Shown: positions 1,570 through 63,989 of the stretch, piece by piece
How positions within the stretch are numbered: position 1 is the first letter of the stretch
Layout of the letters: each line of letters starts with the position of its first letter
Source of the DNA: Escherichia phage vB_Eco_F26
DNA length: 64,000 nt
Sequence record: OP870145.1
Reading direction: 5' to 3' (one strand)
Made by a program: the position numbers and the translations under genes
Notes under the pieces: generated by a model
Told to the model about the DNA's origin: nothing
What the model saw: only the letters and a program-made list of their open reading frames with translations
Databases searched by the model: none

Positions 1570-1587
1570 AGGGACCTTTCGGTCCCT
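1570..1587. terminator. hairpin between convergent genes 24 and rnlB
   Basis: agggacc-tttc-ggtccct followed by ttttatt. Confidence 0.5.
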
Positions 1588-16116: not shown

Positions 16117-16164
16117 CAGGGATTGTCAATTCGCAGAGTAAAATATTAGGAGCAATATAACAAT

Positions 16165-16182
16165 GGGGACCTTTCGGTCCCC
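16165..16182 (+). terminator. GC hairpin plus T-run after gene 54
   Basis: ggggacc-tttc-ggtcccc followed by atatttttattt. Confidence 0.55.
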
Positions 16183-16188
16183 ATATTT

Positions 16189-16479
16189 TTATTTACGGAA
16201 TGAAATGAAAGCAGAAACTGAAGCAACTAAACTGTCTTCAATATAAACTTCAATTTTTACCGGAGCTTCTGACTCAAATTTACCTGTTACTACACCCTGA
16301 AAAATACTTTCAGTCTGTTCTGGCTTTGAAAAATTTTCAGAAGGAAAAATTCCAAACTTTTTATCTGTTCCGAAAATTTTGATAAATTCATCATAAACTG
16401 CTTCATTAAAAGCATTATCAGCAGGAATAACGCCTTCAACTACAAGTTCTTGACCTAAAAAGCGTAAAGAAGATTTCAT
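16189..16479 (-). CDS. hypothetical protein downstream of alt
   Basis: 96 aa ORF; start preceded by promoter/stem-loop cassette. Confidence 0.5.
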   Translation of the reverse strand: MKSSLRFLGQELVVEGVIPADNAFNEAVYDEFIKIFGTDKKFGIFPSENFSKPEQTESIFQGVVTGKFESEAPVKIEVYIEDSLVASVSAFISFRK

Positions 16480-16484
16480 TTTGT

Positions 16485-16545
16485 GTTCCTCATGTTATGT
16501 CAGTAAGAATACTATAACACAACATGAGGGACTTGTAAACTACAT
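16485..16545 (-). repeat. PeSL-like cassette copy A: early promoter (GTTTAC -35) plus stem-loop sequestering SD
   Basis: 50/53 nt identical to copy at 28957..29012; 9-bp stem cctcatgtt/aacatgagg contains GAGG SD of downstream ORF. Confidence 0.6.
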
Positions 16546-16898
16546 TTTGAACTTTTTAGTACGCGTAATAGGCATGCGTCGATTTTATACTGTTTCATTG
16601 TTTGAAGAGCAGTATCAAAAACAGCATTAATGACACCAATTGGATTTCCACCCAAGTTTTTAAGCTTAACTAATGATAGTTTCTCATTAACACCTATCAT
16701 TACGATATGCATCATTTTGTCGCCTGGTTTAACGTTTTATCTGTATCACCGCCAGAGGTGTATGTACAAAATCTAAATCCAGGAAGCACGCTTTCTTCGC
16801 CGGTTTGAATAGCAAAAATTTGTGGTATTTTATGCTTAGGATTTAAGTTAACAACCGGCGCCGAAGCGCCGTCAAATAATTATGTAATAAGTTCCATG
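16545..16898 (-). pseudogene. decayed tandem duplicate of the alt 5' end (N-terminal ~130 codons)
   Basis: about 70% nt identity to alt 18540..18997; ATGGAACTTATTACATAA gives stop at codon 6; alt segment replaced by ggcgccgaagcgcc hairpin; residual 67-aa ORF 16512..16715 aligns to Alt residues ~63-125. Confidence 0.65.
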
Positions 16899-16900
16899 AT

Positions 16901-18997: not shown

Positions 18998-19030
18998 ATC
19001 CTCTCTAGTGTTTATTCTATTTATAAAATT

Positions 19031-19048
19031 AAAGGCCCGAAGGCCTTT
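19031..19048 (-). terminator. GC hairpin upstream of alt
   Basis: aaaggcc-cgaa-ggccttt. Confidence 0.4.
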
Positions 19049-19235
19049 AGTAATCTAGTGGTAAGAGAGTACGATATATTTCAAACTTTGGTCCTTTTTC
19101 ATAGGCATCAAATGCTTCTGTGAATTTATTATAAGCGTATGCATCTACAAATTCGAGAATGACTTGTGATACAGAAGTAGAAACATCTCCACCTTCTTTT
19201 TGAGCAATGACAATTGTTTCTAAGTAAGCTTTCAT
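19047..19235 (-). CDS. hypothetical protein
   Basis: 62 aa ORF, start overlaps gene 30 stop. Confidence 0.4.
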   Translation of the reverse strand: MKAYLETIVIAQKEGGDVSTSVSQVILEFVDAYAYNKFTEAFDAYEKGPKFEIYRTLLPLDY

Positions 19236-22935: not shown

Positions 22936-22984
22936 AACATTTTCCTCAATAGGGGCCAAAGCCCTTTTCTTTTGTTTGTATAAA

Positions 22985-28107: not shown

Positions 28108-28457
28108 TTAGAAAGGTCCTGGATGTCTTCTGCGAACTTGTTGAAGGAGTTGTTGATTTGTTTTTCAACCAATCCTGGCTTATGAGCCACCACATCCGCC
28201 TTCTTTGCGTCTTTGCGCAGTTTTTCATTTTCACGCTCAATAGCAGCAATTGCCTCACGATTTTTATTATTCATCGCATCAATATAATTATACTGAATTC
28301 GCAAATTATTTAATGCTAAGGCGTTTTCATTGGCCGTTTTTGTAATTTCAGTAACTGATGTTTCTAATCTTTCTACCTTATTTTTTAAAATAATAGATGT
28401 TCCGCCAAATGCTATTACAAGTAATAGCAATCCAGCTGTAAAATTACTTACATGCAT
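28104..28457 (-). CDS. hypothetical membrane-anchored coiled-coil protein
   Basis: N-terminal hydrophobic helix then charged coiled-coil. Confidence 0.4.
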   Translation of the reverse strand: MHVSNFTAGLLLLVIAFGGTSIILKNKVERLETSVTEITKTANENALALNNLRIQYNYIDAMNNKNREAIAAIERENEKLRKDAKKADVVAHKPGLVEKQINNSFNKFAEDIQDLSK

Positions 28458-28954
28458 AAAGTTTTAATAACCTCTATAATATCGTCTTGAGAAAGACCGT
28501 TAATTAAAATATGATGTTCAGCTGGAGATTTAGAAATTTTAAAGCATGCCTCAACATCTTCTGCCATATCCGATGCACTACGGTTTGGATTACTAATACC
28601 AAGGCGGTGTTTTCCCGTCAAAGGATTAACGATGATATAGCATTTGCAGTTATTGATATGAACATTAGGTTGAGTCTGATTAATGAACACTTCACAATCA
28701 TACTTAGCGAGTTGATTTTCTAAAAAGACTTTCATCTCTTCAACCGCATCAGGAAGCATATCACGGGCTTGCTCAAGACGACGATTTCGATATTCTTTAA
28801 TGGTCGTTTTCCGCTTGACTTGCTTAGCTAAATCTTTCTTAAGATCAGTGATATATCCAACTCGACGATTTCCTTTGAATACAGAAATCCCATCTGTAGT
28901 ATCACCGTATGCTTCAACGACCATTTCAGTAGTAATAAGTTGTAAATCCATCAT
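28448..28954 (-). CDS. alc: Alc, inhibitor of host transcription on cytosine DNA
   Basis: 168 aa at T4 alc position downstream of rnlA. Confidence 0.7.
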   Translation of the reverse strand: MMDLQLITTEMVVEAYGDTTDGISVFKGNRRVGYITDLKKDLAKQVKRKTTIKEYRNRRLEQARDMLPDAVEEMKVFLENQLAKYDCEVFINQTQPNVHINNCKCYIIVNPLTGKHRLGISNPNRSASDMAEDVEACFKISKSPAEHHILINGLSQDDIIEVIKTLCM

Positions 28955-28956
28955 AA

Positions 28957-29012
28957 AGTCCTCATGTTATGTCAGTAAGACTACTGTAACACAACACGAG
29001 GGACTTGTAAAC
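28957..29012 (-). repeat. PeSL-like cassette copy B between rnlA stop and alc start
   Basis: 50/53 nt identical to copy A; GTTTAC -35 three nt after rnlA stop; stem contains SD GAGGA of alc. Confidence 0.6.
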
Positions 29013-29015
29013 AGC

Positions 29016-30603
<1,588 letters not shown>

Positions 30604-45472: not shown

Positions 45473-48400
45473 ATGGCCGAGATTAAAAGAAAGTTCAGAG
45501 CAGAAGATGGTCTGGACGCAGGTGGTGATAAAATAATCAACGTAGCTTTAGCTGATCGTACCGTAGGAACTGACGGTGTTAACGTTGATTACTTAATTCA
45601 AGAAAACACAGTTCAACAATATGATCCAACTCGTGGATATTTAAAAGATTTTGTAATCATTTATGATAACCGCTTTTGGGCTGCTATAAATGATATTCCA
45701 AAACCAGCAGGAGCTTTTAATAGCGGACGCTGGAGAGCATTACGTACCGATGCTAACTGGATTACAGTCTCATCTGGTTCATATCAATTAAAATCTGGTG
45801 AAGCTATTTCGGTTAACACTGCAGCTGGTAATGATATTACATTTACTTTACCATCTACCCCAATTGATGGTGATACTATCGTTCTCCAAGACATTGGAGG
45901 AAAACCTGGAGTTAACCAAGTTTTAATTGTAGCTCCAGTGCAAAGTATTGTAAACTTCAGAGGTGAACAAGTACGTTCAGTACTAATGACTCATCCAAAG
46001 TCACAGCTAGTTTTAATTTTTAGTAATCGTCTGTGGCAAATGTATGTTGCTGATTATAGTAGAGAAGCTATAGTTGTAACGCCTGCGAGTCTCTATCAGG
46101 CGCAATCAAACGATTTTATCGTACGTAGATTTACTTCTGCTGCACCAATTAATGTCAAACTTCCAAGATTTGCTAATCATGGCGATATTATTAATTTCGT
46201 CGATTTAGATAAACTAAATCCACTTTATCATACAATTGTTACTACATACGATGAAACGACTTCAATACAAGAAGTTGGAACTCATTCTATTGAAGGCCGT
46301 ACATCAATCGACGGTTTCTTGATGTTTGATGATAATGAGAAATTGTGGAGATTGTTTGACGGGGATAGTAAAGCGCGTTTACGTATTATAACAACTAATT
46401 CTAATATTCGTCCAAATGAAGAAGTTATGGTATTTGGTGCGAATAACGGAACAGCTCAGACAATTGAGCTTCAGCTTCCGACTGATATTTCTGTTGGTGA
46501 TACTGTTAAAATTTCCATGAATTACATGAGAAAAGGACAAACAGTTAAAATCAAAGCTGCCGGTGAAGATAAAATTGCTTCTTCAGTTCAATTACTGCAA
46601 TTCCCAAAACGCTCAGAATATCCGCCTGAAACTAAATGGGTAACTGTCCAAGAATTAGTTTTTAATGGTGAAACTAATTATGTTCCAGTTTTGGAGCTTG
46701 CTTATATAGAAGATTCTGATGGAAAATACTGGGTTGTACAACAAAACGTTCCAACTGTAGAAAGAGTAGATTCTTTAAATGATTCTACTAGAGCAAGATT
46801 AGGCGTAATTGCTTTAGCTACACAAGCTCAAGCTAACGTCGATTTAGAAAATTCTCCACAAAAAGAATTAGCAATTACTCCAGAAACATTAGCTAACCGT
46901 ACTGCTACTGAAACTCGTAGAGGTATTGCAAGAATAGCAACTACTGCTCAAGTGAACCAGGATACTACATTCTCTTTTGCTGATGATATTATCATCACTC
47001 CTAAAAAGCTGAATGAAAGAACTGCTACAGAAACTCGTAGAGGTGTCGCAGAAATTGCTACGCAGCAAGAAACAAACGCAGGTACTGATGATACTACAAT
47101 CATCACTCCTAAAAAGCTTCAAGCTCGTCAAGGTTCTGAATCATTATCTGGTATTGTAACTTTTGTATCTACTGCAGGTGCTACTCCGGCTTCTAGCCGT
47201 GAATTAAATGGTACGAATGTTTATAATAAAAACACTAATAATTTAGTTGTTTCACCTAAAGCTTTGGATCAGTATAAAGCTACGCCTACTCAACAGGGTG
47301 CAGTAATTTTAGCAGTTGAAAGTGAAGTAATTGCTGGACAAAGTCAGCAAGGATGGGCAAATGCTGTTGTAACGCCAGAAACGTTACATAAAAAGACATC
47401 AACTGATGGAAGAATTGGTTTAATTGAAATTGCTACGCAAAGTGAAGTTAATACAGGAACTGATTATACTCGTGCAGTCACTCCTAAAACTTTAAATGAC
47501 CGTAAAGCAACTGAAAGTTTAAGTGGTATAGCTGAAATTGCTACACAAGTTGAATTCGACGCAGGCGTCGACGATACTCGTATCTCTACACCATTAAAAA
47601 TTAAAACCAGATTTAATAGTACTGATCGTACTTCTGTTGTTGCTCTATCTGGATTAGTTGAATCAGGAACTCTCTGGGACCATTATACCCTTAATATTCT
47701 TGAAGCAAATGAGACACAGCGTGGTACACTTCGTGTAGCTACACAAGTTGAAGCTGCTGCAGGAACATTAGATAATGTTTTAATAACTCCTAAAAAGCTT
47801 TTAGGTACTAAATCTACCGAATCGCAGGAAGGTGTTATTAAAGTTGCAACTCAGTCTGAAACTGTAACTGGAACGTCAGCAAATACTGCTGTATCTCCAA
47901 AAAATTTAAAATGGATTGTGCAGAGTGAACCTACTTGGGCAGCTACTACTGCGATAAGAGGTTTTGTTAAAACTTCATCCGGTTCAATTACATTCGTTGG
48001 TAATGATACAGTTGGTTCTACACAGAGCTTAGAGCTATACGAGAAAAATAGCTATGCAGTATCACCGTACGAATTAAACCGTGTATTAGCAAATTATTTG
48101 CCGTTAAAAGCAAAAGCCGCTGACGCGAATTTATTAGATGGTCTAGATTCATCCCAGTTCATTCGTAGGGATATTGCACAGACGGTTAATGGTTCACTAA
48201 CCTTAACCCAACAAACGAATCTAAGTGCCCCTCTTGTATCATCTAGTACTGCTACGTTTGGTGGATCAGTTTCGGCAAATAGTACATTAACTATTTCTAA
48301 TACTGGAACGGCAACTCGTCTGATTTTTGAGAAAGGACCTCAAACTGGAACTAACCCAGTACAGACGATGACTATCAGAGTTTGGGGAAATCAGTTTGGT

Positions 48401-61503: not shown

Positions 61504-61603
61504 AATAAGCGTTTAACATATCAATCATTAAAACGATTGGGAATATACTCAAAACTATTAGTATTATAACTACATTCCATATAGCTTTAACAATCTTTTT
61601 CAT
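61490..61603 (-). CDS. small membrane protein
   Basis: Start at internal ATG MKKIVKAIW just after promoter and SD GGAGGAACA. Confidence 0.4.
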   Translation of the reverse strand: MKKIVKAIWNVVIILIVLSIFPIVLMIDMLNAYFGFM

Positions 61604-61627
61604 TTTCTGTTCCTCCGTAGTTGATAG

Positions 61628-61661
61628 GGTAATAATACCACGGAAGAACAGTCCTGTAAAC
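61628..61661 (-). promoter_or_regulatory. early promoter with conserved leader
   Basis: minus strand GTTTACaggactgttcttccgtgGTATTATTAccctatcaactacggaggaaca. Confidence 0.45.
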
Positions 61662-61845
61662 AACTTTTTAAAAATATTCGTAATAAATGTGAATACCAAC
61701 TACTACCGCTGAAACCTGTGCAACCCACCACGCACAAGCAATAAGTACAGAATTCATAATTTTCATAATAACCTCATTACAAAAGTAAATGTTAAACAAA
61801 TTACTGGAATACTAATTAACCAAACAAAACACCACCACAGTGAAC

Positions 61846-62109
61846 TCATAGCTCAATCTCAATGATTTCAAGATTATTTTCTTTAATAGCTTTCTTTAAA
61901 TCATCGTAAATAAGAACTTCCCAAGAATTGTTTAAATCACCATTCAACAAACGCTCTTGTTGCAATTTATCAGTAAGATATGGTTGATCTGATTCATATT
62001 TAGACAATCCCAATGAAATAAATGATGTTGCATCATCAATTTCAGAATATTGTACATAAACAAATTCACCTGTGATTTTATGTTTAACATAAAAGAATTT
62101 AAATTTCAT
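61846..62109 (-). CDS. hypothetical protein
   Basis: 87 aa; preceded by near-identical promoter-leader. Confidence 0.45.
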   Translation of the reverse strand: MKFKFFYVKHKITGEFVYVQYSEIDDATSFISLGLSKYESDQPYLTDKLQQERLLNGDLNNSWEVLIYDDLKKAIKENNLEIIEIEL

Positions 62110-62131
62110 TTTTGTTCCTCCGTAGTTGATA

Positions 62132-62166
62132 GGGTAATAGTACCACGGTCCTTGTGGTATGTAAAC
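62132..62166 (-). promoter_or_regulatory. early promoter with conserved leader
   Basis: minus strand GTTTACataccacaaggaccgtgGTACTATTAccctatcaactacggaggaaca. Confidence 0.45.
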
Positions 62167-62740: not shown

Positions 62741-62823
62741 TTAAACTTTCCTTTTATGTCTGAATCACTGGTATTCATATAAATCATAATTTCTCTTAAA
62801 ACAAAAGGGCCGAAGCCCTTATT

Positions 62824-63018
62824 TTATTTGAATTGTGCAATTCTTTTCTCTAGACATTCAGCATAAGATTTCATTGAGATGAACTGTGAAAGTAGTAGTT
62901 CTTGCTCAACTTCACTAACTGTTAGAAACTTTGCGCTTTCTAAAAATTTACTCAGTGCATTAATTTTGAGCATTAATTGATCGTATTCTTCTTTTACTCG
63001 TGCTTGATAACCTAACAT
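62824..63018 (-). CDS. hypothetical protein
   Basis: 64 aa ORF flanked by GC hairpins. Confidence 0.4.
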   Translation of the reverse strand: MLGYQARVKEEYDQLMLKINALSKFLESAKFLTVSEVEQELLLSQFISMKSYAECLEKRIAQFK

Positions 63019-63050
63019 AATTTTCCTTGATGTGATAAGGGCCGAAGCCC

Positions 63051-63989
63051 TTATTTAAATTGTTCAGTAACGTCTTCAACTACTTCGTATTGGCAGGTAC
63101 GCATTTTAGCATCGTTGTAATCAATCGGAATTGATACTACATCACGCGGATGTACTTTAACTTTTACAACTCGGCTGGTTGAACTGCCAAAGTGACGAAT
63201 ATAAGATTTAGAACACACATGCAGACCACGAGAACAAGTCTGTGTATCATCGTCATTCACACGAGTACGCGGCATTTTAACTACTTTACCCGGACTGTTA
63301 TCAAAGGTGTTTGAGTGACAGTCAAAGTAATTGCTGCGAACTACTTTCCAAGCATAGAAGTAACCATCTTCTGTAATTTCAATATCGTTTGCTACCAAGA
63401 AATCAAAGAGTCGAGATACCGCTTTTTGGCTTGGGTTTTCCAGCAGATTTTCCAAGAACGGGAAATAAAATTCAAAGTTTTCGCCTTTTTCCATCGAGTC
63501 AAGAATACGATCAATTAAACCAGACCGCAATTCAATATTTTGATAGAACAAGCTTCCACCTTCAATTCGAACATCACCGGAAATATATTTTTCAACAGCG
63601 CGACGAACGTTAATTTTTTGTGCCGCTTCTTCCAACTTATCCGCTACAAGCAGATTAAGAATTTCCTGGAAGTTTGAATGAGTATTAGGAGTTGCGTTAT
63701 AAGTTACGCCATCAACAGTAATTGAAATGAATTTTTTAGATGCATTCCAAATAATGTCAGATTTAGCAACTGGAGCAATAACTGCATCGCTATTAACTTT
63801 AACTGTAATATCACCGCTAATAGTAACTTTAGGGCGTTTAGCTTCTTCAGCATTTTTCAAAACACGACGGATTGTGTCAACCGATACACCTTGCCAATCA
63901 GCCAATTCCTGTTGGGTGTAATTACCACTTGAATACAGTTTAACAATTTCAGCTTGTTCGTTTTTGGTCAGGCATTTAATATTGTACAT
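63051..63989 (-). CDS. rIIB: rIIB
   Basis: 312 aa, same length as T4 rIIB; window ends 11 nt upstream of start. Confidence 0.85.
   Translation of the reverse strand: MYNIKCLTKNEQAEIVKLYSSGNYTQQELADWQGVSVDTIRRVLKNAEEAKRPKVTISGDITVKVNSDAVIAPVAKSDIIWNASKKFISITVDGVTYNATPNTHSNFQEILNLLVADKLEEAAQKINVRRAVEKYISGDVRIEGGSLFYQNIELRSGLIDRILDSMEKGENFEFYFPFLENLLENPSQKAVSRLFDFLVANDIEITEDGYFYAWKVVRSNYFDCHSNTFDNSPGKVVKMPRTRVNDDDTQTCSRGLHVCSKSYIRHFGSSTSRVVKVKVHPRDVVSIPIDYNDAKMRTCQYEVVEDVTEQFK

Follow-up and report, generated by a model that had tools for sequence, protein, structure and literature searches.

Masking of a ribosome-binding site by RNA structure is a classical means of coupling the translation of adjacent genes, the MS2 coat-replicase pair being an example. 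A different type of example is provided by the T4 genes e, soc, 49 and I-TevI, where hairpins that sequester the ribosome-binding site are combined with an internal promoter (PMC3014915). Also pertinent, for T4-like phages, are the promoter-early stem-loop (PeSL) cassettes (Arbiol et al. 2010, PMC2839356; Comeau et al. 2014, PMC4122927), with the text of both papers, figures aside, having no mention of alc, alt or rnlA.

The case considered here is in the DNA of Escherichia phage vB_Eco_F26 (OP870145.1), the 64,000 nt analysed being referred to as the window. The window is from a Tequatrovirus, with 98.3% identity to phage BCH953P2 and 97% to T4 over rnlA-alc, and 97-98% identity of the region to annotated T4-like phages. 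A 54-nt cassette is present twice on its minus strand, just upstream of alc (copy B) and, elsewhere, before the unrelated gene alt.-3 (copy A), as a first-pass annotation had described, and 51 of the 54 bases are shared, which bears out the view that one module serves two unrelated genes. Minus-strand positions 29012..28957 read GTTTACAAGTCCCTCGTGTTGTGTTACAGTAGTCTTACTGACATAACATGAGGACT, and copy B itself (29012..28959) is GTTTACAAGTCCCTCGTGTTGTGTTACAGTAGTCTTACTGACATAACATGAGGA. It starts 3 nt (GCT) past the rnlA stop codon, and its end is followed by CTTT and then by the alc ATGATG at 28954, giving a gap of about 4-5 nt from GAGGA to ATG. Pfam assigns ALC to alc (7.8e-92), T4 RNA ligase 1 domains to rnlA and DUF5498 to alt.-3. 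The sequence itself is not new, comparison of the rnlA-alc junction in T4 and relatives, as advocated in that annotation, having shown the cassette to be present in T4 itself. The features at this junction are as follows.

29016..30140, minus strand: rnlA (RNA ligase 1), 374 aa, with its stop TAA at 29018..29016
28959..29012, minus strand: cassette copy B, the repeated 54-nt unit, bounded by the G of GTTTACA and the A of GAGGA; in T4 too
29006..29011, minus strand: -35 hexamer TTTACA, with a G at 29012 in front (GTTTACA); invariant in 12 aligned cassettes from 10 genera
28983..28991, minus strand: extended -10, TGT plus TACAGT (TATAGT in T4), with a 17-nt spacer, from sequence
28982..29006, minus strand: hairpin 5' arm in the predicted fold, AAGUCC-C-UCGUGUUGUGU-UA-CAGUA, comprising spacer and -10, with UCC(C)UC as anti-SD
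28976, minus strand: predicted transcription start, an A, 7 nt past the -10 and the second base of the 3' arm, placed by promoter geometry
28956..28977, minus strand: hairpin 3' arm in the predicted fold, UACUG-ACAUAACAUGA-GGACUU, comprising most of the 22-nt leader
28959..28963, minus strand: alc SD GAGGA, predicted to be paired in read-through RNA and free in own-promoter RNA
28448..28954, minus strand: alc, 168 aa counted from the first ATG (T4 annotation uses the second ATG)

Copy B has the form of a T4-type early (sigma-70) promoter, with GTTTACA, a 17-nt spacer, a TGn extended -10 and TACAGT, the last being TATAGT in both T4 and copy A. Promoter activity is suggested by the consensus, by conservation and by published timing, and T4 GenBank records have no promoter features annotated at the cassette sites. 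Ahead of the -35, copy A has A-tracts within 20 nt, and copy B has 18 nt of mixed rnlA coding sequence followed by a 30-nt tract that is 93% A+T.

In RNA that reads through from upstream, copy B is predicted to form a hairpin of about 22 bp, longer than the stem first described for it, with 6 bp, a C bulge, 11 bp, a UA bulge and 5 bp capped by a GUCU loop (AAGUCC/GGACUU, the bulged C, UCGUGUUGUGU/ACAUAACAUGA, the UA bulge and CAGUA/UACUG). The loop sits between the -10 and the predicted +1. The predicted stability of the read-through RNA is -28.6 kcal/mol for copy B (z -5.4, with none of 200 shuffles folding as well) and -24.1 kcal/mol for copy A (z -4.9). For RNA begun a few bases upstream of the predicted start the values are only -4.1 (copy B, z -0.65) and -2.6 kcal/mol (copy A), with z about -0.7. 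Since the whole 5' arm precedes the predicted start site, it could not be part of RNA made from the cassette's own promoter. The calculated cost of opening the SD is correspondingly different, 11.1 kcal/mol in read-through RNA versus 1.5 in own-promoter RNA for alc, and 12.3 versus 2.9 for alt.-3. With a ~22-nt leader almost any helix between spacer and leader would overlap the SD, making coverage of the SD by itself weak evidence; with shuffled spacers, opening costs about 4 +/- 1.8-1.9 kcal/mol, and none of 300 shuffles reaches the observed 11-13. The first-pass annotation had the stem masking both the SD and the start codon of alc. The former holds, the SD being inside the helix with 11-13 kcal/mol needed to open it, but the start codon is touched solely by an outer helix of 5 bp that is weak (three of its pairs are G.U), is not conserved and does not form in the T4 fold. 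In the folding models, then, SD masking is the robust feature and start-codon masking marginal. Rfam has no match to the cassette at E <= 1.

The reading that we favor, and consider probable, is that the cassette is bifunctional, a promoter as well as a translational gate, with the choice of promoter deciding whether there is translation. At the DNA level it would act as a T4-type early (sigma-70) promoter. In read-through RNA the spacer and -10 would pair with the leader and SD, and the resulting ~22-bp hairpin would hide the ribosome-binding site of alc, whereas RNA from its own promoter would begin at the first bases of the 3' arm and have an open 22-nt leader permitting good translation. 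Alc would come from its own immediate-early RNA, within the first minute; the long delayed-early or middle RNAs reading through via nrd-denA-rnlA would not yield it. Copy A would do likewise for alt.-3, which follows the late gene alt within a single transcription unit. Both alc and alt.-3 are most likely translated solely from their own immediate-early transcripts, an effect on translation that we infer from anatomy, folds, covariation and the absence of a terminator. The proposal in the first-pass annotation of a link between alc translation and a specific early transcript gains support from the folding, from covariation across genera and from the early class (RNA and protein) of alc and alt.-3 in T4 omics.

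Phylogenetic comparison is informative in this regard. Alc homologues are present in 1136 phage records, and for 16 further genera or groups the rnlA-alc gap of representatives was read. In 11 of 13 genera examined, i.e. Tequatrovirus plus Gelderland-, Karam-, Jiaoda-, Moon-, Roskilde-, Braga-, Dhaka-, Gualtar-, Kanagawa- and Winklervirus, the rnlA-alc junction has the same design but arm sequences that differ. In the ten besides Tequatrovirus the gap has GTTTAC(A/T), a 16-17-nt spacer, a TAnnnT -10 and, upstream of the start site, a stretch complementary to the SD that is the first 9-13 spacer bases in nine genera and is just past the -10 in Gualtarvirus (examples of arm pairs being TCTCCGTTTAGTT/AACTAAACGGAGA, TCTCCATTTGGTT/AACCAAATGGAGA, TCCTCATCAG/CTGATGAGGA, ACCTCTCATTTT/AAAATGAGAGGT and TCCTCATTTCGTT/AACGAAATGAGGA). 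Opening the SD in the ten is calculated to cost 8.4-13.7 kcal/mol in read-through RNA versus 0.5-2.2 in own RNA. From IMG/VR, 33 distinct alc cassettes were retrieved, and about 26, as read from their listing, have an extra SD-opening cost of at least 5 kcal/mol in read-through RNA. Copy B had been considered to be inserted after rnlA. That is not borne out, as the 11 genera have the same architecture in a ~60-nt gap with arm sequences of their own, and the occurrence of the same promoter/anti-SD design in them points to the alc copy being ancestral rather than inserted.

For covariation, a gapless MAFFT alignment of 10 equal-length cassettes, made blind to structure, was used together with an alignment-free swap test, given that an all-genera MAFFT alignment had 3' arms 1-3 columns out of register; a covariance-model alignment with reverse-strand matches mixed in was left out of the counts. 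In the gapless alignment 96.9% of cells are paired and 8 of 13 pairs change on both sides, the corresponding values with slid controls being 35-53% and at most one pair. None of 500 shuffles matches either the paired percentage or the covariation score, and in the swap test, with means of -17.9 kcal/mol for own arms and -10.4 for foreign ones, not one of 100,000 permutations is as good, though with the cassette sequences being phylogenetically related the shuffle statistics overstate independence. Individual compensatory steps are discernible: NP4 and L129 differ by an A-U to G-C change, for which STML-198 has an A.C intermediate, Winklervirus and L092 by C-G to U-A, and the two Bragavirus-like phages by another A-U to G-C. 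A covariance model built from these alc cassettes recovers both window copies, at 23.7 and 27 bits. The covariation is strong and, as far as comparison of sequences goes, argues for selection on structure.

The exceptions are also of interest. In Mosigvirus the hairpin at the alc junction is wholly within the spacer and leaves the SD uncovered, and in Tegunavirus and L113 the spacer pairs with +1..+11 and the SD is free; SD opening in Mosigvirus and Tegunavirus costs 1.9 and 2.4 kcal/mol, respectively. These hairpins lacking SD cover indicate that the hairpin as such may have another role. Gaprivervirus has an extra small ORF between rnlA and alc and a different, GGGG/CCCC, hairpin. That ORF (L004 290..600, L008 287..600) encodes 78-88 aa, is annotated by the depositors as 'inhibitor of host transcription' and is preceded by the hairpin GGGG-TGTACAA-CCCC, with alc there having no promoter of its own. 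No comparable architecture was found in the rnlA-alc gap of Ac42 and phiAS4.

The lengths of the helices bear on the notion of an RNase III site that separates the rnlA and alc RNAs, with cleavage inactivating the alc ribosome-binding site. Minimum substrate length for RNase III is close to ~22 bp, which the T4-type hairpin approaches, but the helices of other genera, at just 9-14 bp, are too short, making this the least credible of the alternatives and, as a conserved function, one that was rejected. A role confined to DNA, in which the inverted repeat tunes the promoter or, as a PeSL linker, is a substrate for recombination, the fold of the RNA being of no consequence, would be in keeping with the exchange of cassettes or half-cassettes between alc and alt.-3 in two lineages and with the indels that abut both loci. 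It is also in keeping with the lack of any overall sense/antisense asymmetry across genera (-18.4 versus -17.8 kcal/mol), though for the Tequatrovirus alc copies the sense RNA is 8-9 kcal/mol more stable than the antisense. There, however, the helix relies on 2-3 G.U pairs, which are mismatches in DNA and on the other strand, the compensatory changes maintain pairing of the arms, notably with the SD, and recombination requires identity of repeats and not self-complementarity. It is very improbable that DNA alone is involved.

For copy A and the DNA around it the features are as follows.

16487..16540, minus strand: cassette copy A, identical to copy B at 51/54 positions
16534..16539, minus strand: copy A -35, from sequence
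16511..16516, minus strand: copy A -10, TATAGT, from sequence
16504, minus strand: copy A predicted +1
16487..16491, minus strand: copy A SD, as GAGGA-N7-ATG for alt.-3
16189..16479, minus strand: alt.-3 (DUF5498 by Pfam, 96 aa), the gene served by copy A
16512..16715, minus strand: alt.-2-like ORF, an alt-duplication remnant that runs into copy A and has its stop TAG inside the -10 of the latter
19018..19025, minus strand: late-promoter motif TATAAATA just upstream of alt, from a motif scan

No other early-promoter cassette was found by a scan of the same strand from ~29 kb to 41 kb, and a terminator scan between rnlA and alc yielded no terminator-like site. With no early promoter nearby upstream, RNA reading through into alc would come from far upstream and, from the distance, minutes later. 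A terminator-like site is present upstream of alt (19030..19049), but after the late-promoter motif there is no minus-strand terminator before 16163..16184, which is past alt.-3, and late RNA of alt should accordingly extend across copy A and carry alt.-3. The late-promoter motif TATAAATA is absent at both cassettes. In T4 omics data alc and alt.-3 are classed as early for both RNA and protein, alt as late, alt.-1 and alt.-2 as middle, and rnlA as early RNA but late protein (PMC9697503). Alc has been described as an immediate-early burst product (PMC2988021).

The negative scan also counts against the hairpin being a transcript-boundary element, one that would attenuate or terminate transcription coming from upstream or else shield the 3' end of the rnlA mRNA, with SD masking a by-product of the arms having to fit where bases are left free in a packed 60-nt gap. 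Such a function is unlikely, even with PeSL stem-loops having acted as terminators in reporter tests (PMC2839356), with the hairpins of Mosigvirus and Tegunavirus leaving the SD unmasked, and with the alt.-3 cassettes of other genera having hairpins within the spacer. What follows the hairpin is UUUAUGAUGG in T4-type phages and A-rich sequence in other genera, not a U-tract, and the helix usually ends exactly on the SD. An intrinsic terminator, more specifically, was considered and rejected on the scan and the missing U-tract.

Proximity of the hairpin to the end of the preceding ORF raises the issue of translational coupling, where the hairpin would keep ribosomes from entering polycistronic RNA freely, a ribosome finishing that ORF would melt the base of the helix, made up of the anti-SD:SD pairs, and alc would be translated in proportion to rnlA. 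The rnlA stop codon is just 9-10 nt before the 5' arm, in five genera a stop TAG overlaps the -35 such that the anti-SD begins 7 nt past the stop, and the alt.-2-like ORF upstream of copy A reads through the whole 5' arm and stops in the -10. Nevertheless, the distance from stop to anti-SD varies (the 5' arm is ~20 nt past the stop in Roskildevirus and downstream of the -10 in Gualtarvirus), and it is relative to promoter and start site that the geometry is conserved. In T4, moreover, a ribosome at the stop codon would get no further than the first outer pairs, short of the SD pairs, and the alt.-2 protein was not detected by T4 proteomics (PMC9697503). Coupling is considered quite unlikely, a shade more so than a boundary function, and gating by promoter choice continues to be the reading adopted below.

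Within Tequatrovirus the cassette is fixed and not polymorphic. A 61-nt query matched 997 places in 499 phage records (T4 and 498 others), at two per complete genome plus one partial record, and all 499 are Tequatrovirus-like phages. In IMG/VR, searched with a 15-mer seed, cassettes are solely before alc or alt.-3 and the remaining matches are by chance. Ongoing mobility, or a third locus, was entertained as a candidate and rejected with there being exactly two per genome in the 499 records. Simple ancestral conservation, which the first-pass annotation had set against structure-dependent regulation, is in part correct, in that the genus retains the element at both loci, but selection on structure is what the covariation speaks for. 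Variants within the genus retain the helix: at a G/A site G.U becomes A-U, at a C/T site in the -10 C-G becomes U.G, and one site is in the loop. Phage UTI-E4, with its 5' arm altered at several positions and its 3' arm unchanged, still has a continuous 15-bp helix and a 4-bp apical stem.

As to how two genes came to have the same cassette, the flanks of the two 54-nt copies are unrelated on both sides, with sharp edges at the G of GTTTACA and the A of GAGGA, and none of 100 shuffled sequences contained a match to the pattern. In Dhaka-, Kanagawa-, Karam-, Gelderland-, Mosig-, Gapriver- and Marfavirus, alt.-3 is directly after alt with an early promoter in a ~60-nt gap. The cassettes there mostly have a hairpin inside the spacer, with loops such as AAGGAA or UGGA (that of Kanagawavirus is weak), and masking of the alt.-3 SD is weak (1.6-7.0 kcal/mol). 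Given that other genera have a different and weakly masking alt.-3 cassette, the SD-masking one is specific to Tequatrovirus. Copy A retains AAGTCC, which pairs with the GGACTT of alc and not with the GGAACA of alt.-3, and ancestral alt.-3 leaders already ended in ACATGAGGA. These features and the alt.-3 cassettes of other genera together point to the alc copy as donor and the alt.-3 copy as recipient. On this comparison copy B is the ancestral resident at rnlA-alc and copy A a transplant, and the modular movement of a promoter-plus-RBS unit deduced in the first-pass annotation is upheld except that the copy that moved is the one at alt.-3 and not the one at alc. The alc cassette would have evolved in place, with recombination in an ancestor of Tequatrovirus overwriting the alt.-3 cassette in an exchange that could have been bounded by the shared GTTTACA and AACATGAGGA motifs. 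The movement is old, since both copies are in every Tequatrovirus record. The two copies in T4 differ at one base. More generally paralogous copies differ at 1-3 of 54 positions, as do orthologues, which gene conversion and constraint would predict alike. In most relatives homology upstream of copy A breaks 19 nt before the -35. Separately, at least 80% of the minus-strand stretch 16512..16900 is shared by just 90 of 502 related records.

Other cassettes and repeats deserve mention. A third early-promoter cassette, of unrelated sequence, is on the minus strand at 61603..61666 of the window (GTTTACA GGACTGTTCTTCCGTGG TATTAT ... ACGGAGGAACAG), with its spacer complementary to the SD of an ORF for a 37-aa hydrophobic product and calculated SD-opening costs of 13.1 kcal/mol in read-through RNA versus 0.4 in its own RNA. 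Masking of the SD in this manner is a feature of 3 of the 9 early-promoter cassettes found in the window. A distinct class (L007, L018, L020-L024) has a short hairpin internal to the spacer, with purine loops such as AAGGAA, AUGGAA or UGGA in which GGA is conserved; it occurs before alt.-3 in most other genera examined, before alc in Mosigvirus and at 62109..62165 (minus strand) of the window. In a Dhaka-like IMG/VR genome of 170,473 bp (L134, L136), alc and alt.-3 have an identical 29-nt leader, CCTTACACAAACATGAGGAGAACATTATG, but different spacers, that of alc being an anti-SD and that of alt.-3 having an internal hairpin. The same leader, with its own spacer, also precedes a third gene (protein start MINTFRKYGEM) in related phages (L135, L138). 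The leader shared in the Dhaka-like genome would seem to reflect a second, independent exchange, with half-cassettes seemingly exchanged too.

Of the repeats of other types, the GC-rich hairpin sequence GGGACCTTTCGGTCCC is at 1571..1586 and at 16166..16181, in the latter instance within the terminator-like hairpin 16163..16184 that scores on both strands and is between gene 54 and alt.-3. GC-rich repeats of the AAGGGCCGAAGCCCTT type occur three times in the window (62805..62830, 63037..63062 and 22951..22976). Several diverged direct-repeat families, of 33-68 nt, are inside a coding region on the plus strand at 46874..47800 and probably encode a repeated protein motif in a gene of the tail-fibre region.

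Tentatively, we regard it as quite possible, if not quite probable, that a spacer functioning as anti-SD is an old, selected and exchangeable 'immediate-early-only' switch in Tevenvirinae, with whole or half cassettes recombining between early genes. The instances may comprise the alc to alt.-3 transfer in Tequatrovirus, the shared leader in the Dhaka-like phage and the unrelated third case at 61603..61666. If correct, it would explain how the host-shutoff factor Alc and other immediate-early proteins are confined to the first minutes of infection, their genes being located at the end of long transcription units whose reading continues at later times, and a single stretch of DNA would double as promoter spacer and RNA silencer. 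It would also provide a concrete and datable case of cassette copying between genes, with clear donor and recipient, in support of the modular-shuffling idea for PeSLs. What is new, the possibility of earlier description notwithstanding, is the conserved spacer/anti-SD design with its covariation across genera, and the identification of donor and recipient.

Comparison with the systems introduced at the outset brings out both parallels and departures. Like MS2-type coupling, the alc arrangement pairs a downstream ribosome-binding site with sequence near the end of the preceding ORF, but it is with respect to the promoter, and not the upstream stop codon, that the geometry is conserved. The parallel with e, soc, 49 and I-TevI is closer, the SD being (here by prediction) in a helix on long transcripts and RNA from the internal promoter lacking, by geometry, the 5' arm. 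However, their internal promoters are late (TATAAATA) and confine translation to late times, so that alc, with a promoter of early type, is the mirror image; in addition, the 5' arm at alc is the promoter spacer itself, and the alc case is known from sequence and predicted folds. With PeSLs the cassette shares the combination of a sigma-70-type early promoter with a stem-loop, the 3' end being occupied by SD and start codon, which supports its initial designation as a PeSL-type promoter-plus-RBS cassette. Shared also are a match to the PST/T4 consensus TTTACW-N17-TAYWAT at all but one (-10) position, repetition in the genome, with two copies, and indels or module exchange at copy A and at the Gaprivervirus rnlA-alc junction. 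The differences are that published stems are compact and at, in or next to the promoter, whereas the arms at alc are the spacer and the leader plus SD; that the alc hairpin contains the -10 and the start site, a span outside the five published stem positions; that published stems were proposed as terminators, and by sequence criteria the alc cassette has no terminator signature; and that the alc locus is syntenic across many genera and not hyperplastic. By composition, and by its link to module exchange, the cassette nonetheless qualifies as a PeSL.
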